A stretch of DNA of 64,000 nt from Lophium mytilinum (lineage: Eukaryota): positions 1,126,801 through 1,190,800 of the forward strand of contig MU004184.1 of NCBI GenBank assembly GCA_010093605.1. Direction: 5' to 3'. The position numbers were made by a program, and so were the translations under genes. The stretch's first letter is position 1. The number at the start of each line of letters is the position of its first letter. The notes below the pieces were generated by a model. That model was not told where the DNA came from and did not search any database. It saw only the letters and a list, made by a program, of their open reading frames with translations. Below are positions 36,211 to 53,727 of the stretch, one piece after another.

Positions 36211-36461
36211 AGATGGTGTTTTGGCGGGGATATACGGAAAGGGATCGGTGAGTTTCTTGAAGAGTGATGGTAAGAAGGAGATATATACACCTGTCTGCCA
36301 CTTCTTGGAGTGCTTTAACAAGTTTCCAGATAGCCCAAAACTAATGGCAATCATCTCATTTGTATCTCTTAAAATGTATCGAAGCACCACAAACAGCGGC
36401 AGACAGTTGTATAAGAGGCAGAATGCGGGTTGAGTGTGCCACCTTTTTCATACCACGTGTG
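36211..36461 (+). mobile_element. Transib-like MITE, body and right TIR (split by inversion)
   Basis: Internal sequence similar to the 53280-53469 copy (CACCTGTCTG.CACT.CTTG.AGTGCTT.AACAAGTTTC). Right TIR ends ...CACGTGTG and is followed by GCAGG. Confidence 0.8.
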
Positions 36462-36640
36462 GCAGGCACCTTCTCAACGACGAGATCATGGCTTCTAGTT
36501 TCCACACACATCACATGAAAGAGCGATGTCACCCCTGTCACTTTGTTTATTTAGTCTCCACCGCCTGCGTCTTCTCGACCTTCTCTCTCACATTCCACTC
36601 CGCAGCATTGTCAACCAGCAACACTAAGCTTCCATCCATT

Positions 36641-36698
36641 ACTCTCATCCACTACTCCGCTCTCATCCACTACTCCACTCTCATCCACTACTCCGCTC
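36641..36698. repeat. 18-bp tandem repeat x3 in the PLAC8 5' region
   Basis: (RCTCTCATCCACTACTCC)3. Confidence 0.9.
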
Positions 36699-36809
36699 TC
36701 GTCTCCCTCGCCGTTTCACTGTCGTCGTGTTCTTGTCTCGTTCTCGGCGTTGCTCGACCACTCTCTGGACTTCACATCCCACCGCTTGCATCGTTTCTTT
36801 GCATCCATC

Positions 36810-37127
36810 ATGTCGACCCCCGCCTATCCTCAGACCGCCGGCAGTCCCTCGCAAGACATCGACGTTGAGAATCAGCGTAGAGACAACGTCAACGAATCTG
36901 GATCAGCACCGGCAGCTCCAGCTGGCGAGAAGCAGGACCGCCTGGTCTCGCTCTCTGACTGCTTTGATCCGCCGGGATTATGTAAGTTTGATCACTCGTT
37001 GACCTTATCATGCTCAAGCGGAACTACTGCTGACAAGTGTCTCTGCCCATGTTATATCTTTGGGAAGACGTACCATCGACTGAAGAACAACGGCGACATG
37101 AGCACATTTAGACCGGCCAATGGCCCG
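36810..37127 (+). pseudogene. PLAC8 gene, 5' half
   Basis: MSTPAYP...SLSDCFDPPGLC...CLCPCYIFGKTYHRL...ANGP followed by donor GTACAT at 37128. Confidence 0.85.
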
Positions 37128-49649: not shown

Positions 49650-52303
49650 ATGGCTGAACAGCTCAACATGGGTGGTCTCTCGATCAACGAGTCTCAACAT
49701 GCTCCCTCCAACGGGTTCCCTGATCGTGCTGCCTATATTCCGCCTCACCTGCGCGGAAGATCGGGCACACCCTCAGGCCCGATGGACGCTCCTCCTCCGG
49801 TCATGAACGGCGCTCCGCCGCCCATGAACGGTAACATGAACGGAGGCGCTTGGGGAGGTCCTCCAGGGTACGCATCTGATTTCTGAGTGTGCTCTGCCCG
49901 CTCCTGACTAACTTTCAGCAGAGGAGGATATGGCGGACCCCCTCCGCGCGCGGCCGCCGCCAACGGTGGCGGCAACTGGGCTAATGCTAATGCCCCCAAC
50001 TTCACACCTAGAGGTAGCGACGCACCCGCGCCCGCAGCCGCTGCATCCGGAGCCGGATGGGGTGGAAAACCTGCGACAACGTTCGACCCGAATGCTTATG
50101 GAAAACCAGGTGCTGGTGGATCATCCGGAGTTGTCTCAGCTCGAGGTGCTGGTGACGGGACATGGAGAGATGGCAAGCATACCCCAGGTCCTGCCAACCC
50201 TCGTGTCGAGCGTGAGCTCTTCGGCGTAGCAAATGATCCGTCCAAACAACACACGGGCATCAATTTCGAGAAGTATGATGACATCCCTGTCGAAGCCTCA
50301 GGCCAAGGTGTCCCTGAGCCTGTTACACGATTCACGAATCCTCCGCTCGACGATCATCTCTTGACCAACATCGGTCTCGCTGGCTACAACGTCCCCACGC
50401 CGGTGCAAAAATACTCTATCCCTATCGTTATGGGTGGCCGTGACTTGATGGCTTGTGCTCAAACTGGCTCCGGAAAGACTGGTGGTTTCTTGTTCCCTAT
50501 CCTTTCCCAGGCTTTCCAGACCGGCCCCAGCGCTCCCCCACAACAAGCAGCGGGCGGATACGGATACGGCCGTCAGCGAAAAGCATACCCCACGTCCCTG
50601 ATCCTGGCTCCCACGCGTGAGTTGGTCTCCCAGATCTATGAGGAAGCCCGAAAATTTGCCTACCGTTCCTGGGTGCGACCCTGTGTCGTCTATGGTGGTG
50701 CCGATATCGGCTCCCAGCTCCGCCAGATCGAGCGAGGCTGTGACCTGCTCGTTGCCACTCCCGGTCGTCTCGTCGATCTCATTGAGCGTGGCCGTATCTC
50801 TCTCTGCAACATCAAGTATCTCGTTCTCGATGAGGCTGATCGCATGTTGGACATGGGTTTCGAGCCCCAGATTCGCCGCATCGTCGAAGGCGAAGACATG
50901 CCACCTACGTCTGCCCGTCAGACTCTCATGTTTTCAGCTACATTCCCCCGGGACATCCAAATGCTTGCTCGCGATTTCTTAAAGGAGTACATTTTCCTTT
51001 CTGTTGGTCGTGTTGGATCCACTTCTGAGAACATCACTCAGAAAGTTGAATACGTCGAGGACATCGACAAGCGCTCTGTTCTGCTCGACATCTTGCACAC
51101 CGTCGGCACTGGTCTCACATTGATCTTCGTCGAGACAAAGCGCATGGCGGATTCCCTTTCGGATTTCCTTATCAACCAAGGGTTCCCAGCTACATCCATC
51201 CACGGTGACCGTACCCAGCGTGAGCGTGAGAAGGCTCTGGAGATGTTCCGCACTGGTCGCTGCCCAATCCTTGTCGCGACTGCCGTCGCTGCTCGGTAAG
51301 TCTTTTCTTCTTCGTTTCTCCCAACCTGCAAAAATCACAACACTCCCGTGCCATTTTGGACTTCTCTTGCCTGGTGTACACCTATCTGCCGCTGCGTGTG
51401 GTGCTTCAATGCGTTTTGTGGAAAACCATAGAGATGGAACGTCTTAGCTTTGGGCTATGTGGAAACGTCTTGAAGCACTTCAAGCATTAGCAAACAGATG
51501 TACACACTGGCCACATTTTCCATGTCTAGCGTGTCTCTACCTTCTCAACCACACTTCACACACTTTTACACTCTTGCTAACGATTACTTTCAGAGGACTG
51601 GATATTCCGAATGGTAAGCCCCCGATACAGATGAAAAGCCTCTTAGCAATCTGTTTGTTTGAATAAACTACTTAGGGAGTATTCCAGGACAACCATAGTA
51701 GTGTCTTGGAATCCCCTGAAGAAGTGTCTCACGCAACAGTTGTTACAAGATATCGGTTTCCTCACTCCAGTTCTGAAAGATTTGCTAACTTTATTGCTAC
51801 CTTCAGTGACTCACGTCGTCAACTACGACCTCCCCACCGACATTGACGACTATGTCCACCGTATTGGTCGTACTGGTCGTGCCGGAAACACCGGTATCTC
51901 AACTGCCTTTTTCAACCGTGGCAACCGCGGTGTTGTCCGAGACCTCATCGACCTTCTTAAGGAAGCCAACCAGGAGGTCCCAAGCTTCTTGGAGAGCATT
52001 GCTCGCGAGGGCAGCGGCTTTGGTGGCGGTCGCGGTGGAGGTGGTCGCGGCCGTGGCCGTGGCGGTGCCGCTACTCGTGACGTCCGAGGCTTCAACCGCA
52101 CAGGCGGAGGTGGAGCAGGTGGCTTCGGCGGTGGCGGGAACTGGGGAGGCGCTCCTGCTGGAGGTGCCGGTGGCTATGGTGGAGGATTCGGTGGCCCACC
52201 TGCCGGTGGCTATGGCGGAGGAGGAGGAGGATACGGCGGCGGAATGGGTGGTGGAAGCTACGGCAACCCATCCGGCCCCGGAGGCCAGTCCTCTTGGTGG
52301 TAG
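49650..52303 (+). CDS. DED1: DEAD-box RNA helicase Ded1/DDX3
   Basis: [61 protein letters not shown] tail ending SSWW. Confidence 0.97.
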
Positions 52304-53279
52304 ATCCCTCTACCTCGATACCGAACCCGGTGCCCAGGTTACATCAGTCTCTCTTGGACAGCCTGGGGCCACAAAGCCGTCCTCGACATGGCTCGACACG
52401 GCTCGATTCTCTTTTTATTTCTGTTTTCACGGGTTGATTCTGCTTCACCAGGATTGCAAATCGACACGGAAGTCCGGAACTTGCTCTCATACCCCGATCA
52501 GCATATAGATAGCGTTGAGATTCTTTGCGGACCTGCCTCCTTTATTGAGCTCCATTGCATCAGGATCACGGCGCACAAACGTCGGCTCACATCGAGCTCG
52601 ATCTCATAGAAGGCAGTAGGCATGAGGCCTTATCTCGAGGAAATGCCGTCACGAATATCTTATGCCTTTCCGCTTTCACACCTTGCTGCTTGGGGGGCTA
52701 CCAATCCAGATAGATCTCGTTTCTCCGGCTTTCGAGTGCCGATGGGTCATCTTCTTTTCTTTCCTCTTTTTTCTTTACAGTTTCACAAAAGCGAGCTATC
52801 CCTTTGGTCATTACGTCTCGGACGAACATGCGCTTTTTCGTCGTCATTTGGAAGGATATACCAGCAAGAGTGGGCCTTTTTTTGGACGACGAGGGGGCGG
52901 TGGTCTCTATCGCACATGCATGGCGTTCACAGTGGGTGTTAGGCCTTCTGGCGCCCCTAGTACAGGATCGGCGATGGAAAAAGTCTGCGGTTTACGGCTT
53001 TTCTTTCATGGGAATTGGGGAAATGGAGGGCCCCAACTCGTGGCGGAAGGCTTTGGGCCACTATCTACGCGCTCCGGGCAGCGATAATGACTTTGGGTGA
53101 TAGATCATCAAATCAAAAAAGTGTCTTCGGTCTTAATGGAGGGCGACTTAATAGACTATTCCTATGGAGCGACTTGGACTCTACTCTGCATTTGAAGTGA
53201 TGTGCTTGAGTAGGACCCTTTTCAAGAGGCGATGTCTCAGTCAAAAGCTAACATTCCTCCACTTCTGACTCTATCGCGA

Positions 53280-53469
53280 CACGCTGGGCACAAAAAGGTA
53301 GCACACTCAGCAAGCGTCCTGTCTCGTGCGGTCGGGTATGCACCTGTCTGTCACTGCTTGAAGTGCTTCAACAAGTTTCAACACAGTCGAATGCTGAGAC
53401 TTTCCATCTTGTTGAGTATACACCAGACAGAATGCTCGGTAAGTGTGCCCTTTCATCATGCTCGGTGTG
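53280..53469. mobile_element. Transib-like MITE, 190 bp, TSD CGCGA
   Basis: Left TIR CACGCTGGGCACAAAAAGGTAGCACAC; degenerate right TIR ending GTGTG; CGCGA at 53275-53279 and 53470-53474. Confidence 0.85.
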
Positions 53470-53727
53470 CGCGAGGGCGTAACATCTGTCTGATCACGTG
53501 AGAACGATCACATGCAGCCGGATTAAAGTGCACCCTGGCCCGACGGCCAGGTTCGCGCCTTCACCAGTTCTTGGATTAATAAAGTTCGCGGGAGCGCTAT
53601 CGCTCCAGCTACATATTCGAGAGTCAAGTCCACTGCTGATCATCCACGTCTACGGCATCACTGCACCAACCCCCTGTAATTTCGAAACATTTCCTTGCGC
53701 GCTGCATTGGCGCGACCTGAGCTCGAC

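Follow-up and report, generated by a model that had tools for sequence, protein, structure and literature searches.

Which transposase moves the short elements with CAC...GTG ends that lie in a 64-kb stretch of an ascomycete genome (contig MU004184.1 of assembly GCA_010093605.1, positions 1,126,801 to 1,190,800; all 64,000 nt are hereafter called the window)? An initial annotation, made from the letters of the window, had described three related non-autonomous elements there, one of them split in two, and had read their CAC termini and 5-bp target-site duplications as hallmarks of Transib, the transposon superfamily related to RAG1. It proposed that a Transib-like or undescribed transposase had been active in the host. 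Following up this proposal, we are highly confident that the window holds a family of MITEs (miniature transposable elements with inverted repeats) that make 5-bp duplications, together with an inversion that broke one of the copies. Below, we describe the copies, their ends, and their number, and then weigh the candidate partners. Coordinates are those of the window, and statements on published systems refer to the compared passages of the papers cited.

Copy B (37468-37698, plus strand, 231 bp) and copy C (53280-53469, plus strand, 190 bp) are intact, and both were exactly as first described, with CAC...GTG ends and 5-bp repeats. Read directly from its coordinates, copy B starts with CACGCGGGGCAT and finishes with ATGCCCAGCGTG; it has inverted ends of about 29 bp and an internal 43-nt inverted repeat, and GAAGG lies directly outside both tips (37463-37467 and 37699-37703). 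Copy C begins with CACGCTGGGCAC, closes with GTG, and has CGCGA directly outside both tips (53275-53279 and 53470-53474). In both copies, the bases bordering the outer sides of the 5-bp repeats differ from each other, and the inverted ends likewise cannot be extended by one base. Thus, the duplication is exactly 5 bp and the tip of the element is the C of CAC. Including copy A, described below, exact 5-bp duplications (GAAGG, CGCGA, and GCAGG) were found in all three copies in which both ends could be scored, in agreement with the initial annotation; the chance of a single 5-bp match is approximately 1/1024. G or C accounted for 11 of the 15 duplicated bases, and the 25-bp empty sites had a GC content of 56–64% against 50.5% for the window, a comparison of three sites only. 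TA was present at none of the six junctions.

Copy A now consists of two pieces. The larger piece (36286-36461, plus strand) comprises the internal region and the right inverted end and is followed by GCAGG at 36462-36466. The detached left arm (37145-37186, minus strand, 42 bp) is now inverted, and the next bases on the plus strand are CCTGC (37187-37191), the reverse complement of GCAGG. On the plus strand, 36432-36461 and 37157-37186 both look like right ends, with GCAGG after the former and CCTGC after the latter, because the 859-bp segment 36286-37144 is inverted. One breakpoint of this segment is located inside copy A, past the 42-bp left arm, and the other in the intron of a gene of the PLAC8 family. 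Contigs bearing other copies, from both the source sample and a second organism, join 36286/36289 to 37144/37145 on opposite strands, indicating that intact copies carry the reverse complement of 37145-37186 directly before 36286. The likeness of other copies to the window stops upstream of 36286/36288-36289; therefore, 36211-36285 is not element sequence, and it is in fact part of the intron of the PLAC8-family gene. When the inversion was undone by a script, a 218-bp element with GCAGG on both sides was restored, along with a 124-nt intron that has GT as its donor, CTAAC as its branch site, and CAG as its acceptor. Moreover, in both sequencing runs of the source sample, 1413-nt Logan contigs cover the two junctions and show 0 differences there, so that the arrangement does not stem from an error of this one assembly, even if the reads were taken from that same sample. 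What had been read as a split copy is a single element, broken by an 859-bp inversion that also split the PLAC8-family gene onto opposite strands. Hence, the split copy of the initial annotation is real and its duplication is indeed GCAGG, but its start had to be moved from 36211 to 36286, and the split itself is the inversion.

The two halves of the PLAC8-family gene were located on opposite strands. The 5' coding part (36810-37127, plus strand) matches residues 1-88 of the homologue P0122, and the 3' coding part (35720-36178, minus strand) contains Pfam PLAC8 positions 46-101 and matches P0122 residues up to 197. In the Pfam scans, the minus-strand open reading frame (ORF) 35720-36340 gave PLAC8 positions 46-101 (E 9e-12), and the plus-strand ORF 36555-37172 gave positions 9-39, the latter at E 0.031, which does not reach the curated cut-off. 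When the minus-strand part served as query in an exhaustive protein search, full-length homologues were recovered, and P0122 (219 aa) was the best of them. The plus strand at 36810-37121 corresponds to residues 1-88 of P0122 (E 1e-20), and the minus strand at 36259-35849 to residues 70-197 (E 3e-20). This two-strand pattern was also observed with four of the six other homologues tested, with weaker N-terminal matches (E 2e-6 to 1.9), and the remaining two matched the minus strand only. Within the 5' part, 36982-37037 is open in frame, with GTAAGT at 36982, and P0122 is without these approximately 15 residues; this stretch may be a small intron, with boundaries that are not resolved in frame. 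Just upstream of the PLAC8 start codon, 36641-36703 contains three overlapping copies of a 27-nt stretch (ACTCTCATCCACTACTCC-type unit) with 18-bp spacing.

Copy A would have inserted approximately 345 bp upstream of the PLAC8-family gene and been broken by the inversion later. The inversion looks like the outcome of ordinary double-strand-break repair, not of transposase cleavage, because neither breakpoint is at a tip of the element: one is 42 bp inside it, and the other is in the intron of the gene. The inner breakpoint falls at the foot of the internal 47-nt inverted repeat of copy A, which suggests that the hairpin of the element may have provoked the break. In addition, copies A and B are only 276 bp apart in one intergenic stretch (37187-37467), and this closeness suggests either that the elements hop locally or that the region is a preferred target.

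Besides the three copies already listed, which are all present, we found a fourth one that the initial annotation had missed, by BLAST of the other copies against the window and by reading the minus strand. This copy D (approximately 51320-51533, minus strand) is degenerate: its left end is clear at 51533 (CACGCTAGACATGG, flank AGAGA), and its right end, at about 51320, has decayed. Its core is homologous to those of A and C, with 55 nt being 84% identical to C. Copy D sits in a non-coding gap of a DEAD-box helicase gene, between two ORFs that encode Helicase_C positions 2-77 (this ORF ends at 51296) and positions 81-110, respectively. The copies are non-coding and 190–231 bp long, and they share internal sequence (A and C, 70% identical; the remaining pairs, 53–65%). 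DNA folds gave end-to-end hairpins for the copies (−28 to −69 kcal/mol), and no Rfam family matched the region. Judged from their sequence, the elements are MITEs, that is, non-coding derivatives of a cut-and-paste DNA transposon that would need a transposase in trans.

The seven ends align over about 29–31 bp, as befits the non-autonomous elements with terminal inverted repeats that had been proposed, and the CAC noted at their termini was invariant (7/7). The commonest start is CACGCTGGGCAT, next comes an A-run and then GGCACAC, and similarity fades after about 29–31 bp. Ends read CACGC or CACAC, and the commonest heptamer is CACGCTG. With up to 3 mismatches allowed, the outer 16-mer had 6 matches in the window versus 1.59 expected, a count reached in 0 of 100 shuffles, and 5 of these 6 matches were element ends. 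Similarly, the inner 13-mer had 6 matches in the window (1.20 expected), 5 of them element ends. A profile built from the seven ends detected no further ends in the 64-kb window (next best match, E = 6.7).

The partner could be an integrase-like Ginger2/TDD transposon, or the elements could be remnants of retroelements, of the solo-LTR (long terminal repeat) or TRIM (miniature terminal-repeat retrotransposon) type. Duplications of 5 bp are made by TDD-4/TDD-5 and by LTR elements (PMC2836005), and Ginger is widespread in Dikarya (PMC5751038), but the termini are TGTNR...CA in those groups (PMC2836005) versus CAC...GTG in all seven ends here, and ours form hairpins of 29-bp inverted repeats rather than carrying direct LTRs. 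Because the termini do not fit, we disfavour the Ginger2/TDD and LTR readings and consider them highly improbable. We also consider improbable, if less markedly so, a transposase of the hAT superfamily whose lineage, in the manner of hAT5, leaves duplications of 5 bp and not of 8 bp. The usual hAT terminal motif is YARNG, which does not fit CACGC. hAT elements are common in fungi, and hAT5, hAT6, and hAT7 illustrate how duplication length varies (PMC12730594); hAT transposases also use hairpin intermediates, as Transib does (PMC1131882). However, hAT5 is placed within animal hAT lineages (PMC12730594), and hAT targets tend to be AT-rich (PMC1131882), whereas the three observed here are GC-rich.

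We assessed the size of the family with X1 and X2, two sequencing runs of the source sample, and X3, from a related organism that is approximately 98% identical. At position 36380, other copies were found on 30 contigs of X1 and 24 of X2, and the summed depth was 6171 versus about 160–171 for single-copy DNA, a ratio that suggests about 35–40 copies of the main subfamily at 80% likeness or more. The source-genome contigs held at least 30 further copies, and the left arm of the B type was found on four extra contigs. Past 36451, 9 contigs of X1 and 10 of X2 extend through the family end GCCCAGCGTG before they diverge. The family is therefore abundant, as the initial annotation had supposed from three copies. 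X3 contigs also hold the element core (five contigs at 36380). One X3 contig skips 39424-39474 (51 bases), a spliced intron between two RhoGAP ORFs, and X3 is thus probably RNA; if so, element copies would be transcribed within mRNAs of the X3 organism.

The host has HET domains and a RIP-like (repeat-induced point mutation) block of 26% GC, and its argininosuccinate lyase shares 89% identity with the enzymes of the named Pleosporales Lindgomyces, Zopfia, and Lojkania, with no closer named match. These markers place it among the filamentous ascomycetes, in the class Dothideomycetes, which agrees with the ascomycete host first proposed. Elsewhere in the window, 46614-46668 is a perfect 9-bp tandem repeat (GGAGTAATG, 6.1 copies). 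The bin that contains it had a depth of 14407 versus about 160 in source-genome contigs, or about 90 times that of single-copy DNA, indicating that the repeat unit is widespread in the genome.

We then looked for the transposase itself. Pfam scans of the ORFs revealed no transposase domain in the 64-kb window; among its unknown ORFs, matches to Pfam at E ≤ 0.05 were, besides HET and PLAC8, limited to a sub-threshold DUF2298, and three unknown ORFs compared with PDB sequences had no match below E = 0.3. The RIP-like block, at about 57412-63230 (5.8 kb, 26% GC), splits a HET-domain gene, with profile positions 1-60 at about 57245-57420 and positions 55-146 at 63234-63998. By eye, its junctions share a YTGYATY-like stretch, which fits a RIP-mutated duplication of up to 7 bp. 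We rejected this AT-rich block (57.4–63.2 kb) as a RIPped autonomous partner: a six-frame Pfam scan of it showed only the flanking HET gene, it had no terminal direct or inverted repeats, and nothing linked it to the MITEs. Scanning metagenomes for the end pattern yielded 75 loci, which we judged to be chance matches and not relatives, because their spacers were not A-rich (≤5 A in 75 of 75) and their contigs had a GC content of 47–74% (74 of 75). Full-text literature matches to the 12-mer end were, among the matches listed, unrelated primers or phage text.

Likewise, no described fungal MITE family with CAC ends and a 5-bp duplication was found in the compared literature, although the supplements of Dothideomycete transposon papers could hold such a family. 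It is conceivable, but in our view doubtful, that the partner is a transposase of an undescribed superfamily, or of a different known family whose duplication length would be atypical. Many Dothideomycete MITE families are unclassified, for example, DTX_MITE (PMC8549362), and neither the window nor our searches tied any protein to the ends; conversely, CAC ends with a short duplication fit an established signature, that of the CACTA/Mirage/Chapaev/Transib (CMCT) clade, with no need for a new family (PMC12730594).

As the best explanation overall, we favour, with moderate confidence and by a modest degree, Dothideomycete MITEs moved by a transposase that would most likely belong to the CMCT clade; the placement of the partner in this clade, taken by itself, we regard as evenly balanced. 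The attribution is made because of the end sequence and the duplication length, since members of the clade have common CA..TG termini and duplications of 2–5 bp (PMC12730594). The elements do not show the defining duplication or terminus of EnSpm, KDZ (Kyakuja, Dileera, and Zisupton), Tc1/mariner, or Ginger. The transposase, encoded elsewhere in the genome, would bind the ends and move the copies in trans, and each insertion would duplicate exactly 5 bp of a rather GC-rich target. The partner would be a true Transib or a fungal EnSpm/RAG1-like lineage making 5-bp duplications; some fungal CMCT lineages (EnSpm, Plavaka, and ESTA) have RAG1-like transposases according to HHpred (PMC12730594).

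Several points weigh against this attribution. The superfamily call draws solely on the end signature and three duplications, with no autonomous copy or transposase seen. The ends read CACGC, not CACTA; that is, CAC is present and its continuation is GC, not TA. EnSpm-type duplications are 2–4 bp long, versus 5 bp here. The 38-bp end layout of Transib is missing, with positions 31-39 differing in all seven ends. Copy D has no clean duplication (AGAGA versus AGAAA at best, by eye, its right end having decayed). No empty site or polymorphism was seen among the compared data, in which the only second organism, X3, leaves the insertion sites of copies B and C uncovered. Furthermore, 0 Transib transposases were counted in fungi (PMC5751038), and 5-bp duplications are also made by hAT5 (PMC12730594) and TDD-4/TDD-5 (PMC2836005).

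Nested within the favoured CMCT explanation is the narrower one that the partner is a true Transib with a RAG1-core-like transposase, which would imply an active Transib lineage in Pezizomycotina. Transib is the only eukaryotic superfamily described with 5-bp duplications and GC-rich targets (PMC1131882), and the elements share the 5-bp duplications (3/3 copies) and the CAC ends (7/7), with GC-rich duplications (11/15 bases) at the three sites scored. CACGCTG agrees at five of seven positions both with the Transib consensus CACAATG and with CACAGTG, the heptamer of the recombination signal sequence (RSS) (PMC1131882). Transib has been reported once in a fungus, soybean rust (PMC1131882). On the other hand, we saw no RAG1-like protein, and no Transib transposase turned up when 1,730 fungal genomes were surveyed, Transib (Pfam RAG1) being the one superfamily missing from fungi (PMC5751038). 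In the CMCT clade, moreover, duplication length is variable, as other fungal RAG1/EnSpm-like lineages such as ESTA and Plavaka illustrate (PMC12730594). The Transib end of 38 bp consists of CACAATG, a 23-bp spacer, and the A-rich nonamer AAAAAAATC, and among fungi Transib is given for soybean rust only (PMC1131882); this end layout is missing here. However, HzTransib ends resemble the heptamer and not the nonamer (PMC4840297). The initial use of CAC and 5 bp as a mark of Transib was broadly right (PMC1131882), but 5-bp duplications are shared by hAT5 (PMC12730594) and TDD-4/TDD-5 (PMC2836005). At present, that interpretation can be called a fair reading of the hallmarks, and we infer the Transib-like nature of the partner from the ends alone. 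That a true Transib transposase, or a sister lineage making 5-bp duplications, resides in this Dothideomycete and mobilises the elements seems to us rather unlikely.

If the partner were Transib-like, RAG1-related transposases would extend into the largest fungal subphylum, and a tractable microbial host would become available for RAG-type cut-and-paste chemistry. If it were a true Transib or a sister lineage, Pezizomycotina would have their first transposon system of the RAG1 type, one with dozens of non-autonomous copies available for study, because the compared literature gives Transib only in a rust fungus (PMC1131882) or as absent from fungi (PMC5751038). Even if it were not Transib, a CAC-ended family that duplicates 5 bp fits no fungal DNA-transposon family in the compared literature and would add a lineage to the classification of fungal transposons. 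The family also adjoins and enters genes, and the inversion marked by copy A disrupted a PLAC8-family gene, which provides a concrete example of gene loss associated with an element.

Compared with known systems, the elements resemble Transib (Kapitonov & Jurka 2005, PMC1131882; HzTransib, PMC4840297) in the 5-bp duplication, in a 5'-CAC that partly matches the heptamer, and in the lean toward GC-rich targets (three sites). They differ from it in that their ends have no conserved 23-bp spacer or A-rich nonamer and in that the host is an ascomycete, a group without a Transib report in the compared literature. With the fungal CMCT lineages EnSpm, Plavaka, and ESTA (Kojima 2025, PMC12730594), they share CA/CAC...TG/GTG termini, short duplications, and a fungal host; those lineages, however, duplicate TA, 2 bp, or 3 bp and were described in Basidiomycota (PMC12730594), whereas we observed 5 bp in a Dothideomycete. 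EnSpm/CACTA, Mirage, and Chapaev elements in general make duplications of 2–4 bp, unlike the 5 bp found in three of three copies. hAT5 (cited in PMC12730594) has the same duplication length, but it comprises animal lineages and disagrees with the elements in terminal motif and in target composition. Ginger2/TDD-4 and TDD-5 (PMC2836005) are similar in their long inverted ends and, for TDD-4/5, in the 5-bp duplication, but they have TGTNR termini and prefer AT-rich targets (PMC2836005), in contrast to the CACGC/CACAC ends here. KDZ elements duplicate 7–8 bp (PMC12730594) rather than 5 bp, and Tc1/mariner/pogo elements duplicate TA, which was absent from the six junctions. Finally, compared by description only, the elements resemble the DTX_MITE_* families of Parastagonospora nodorum (PMC8549362), which are likewise short, GC-normal, multi-copy, and non-autonomous and lie near genes in a RIP-subject genome.

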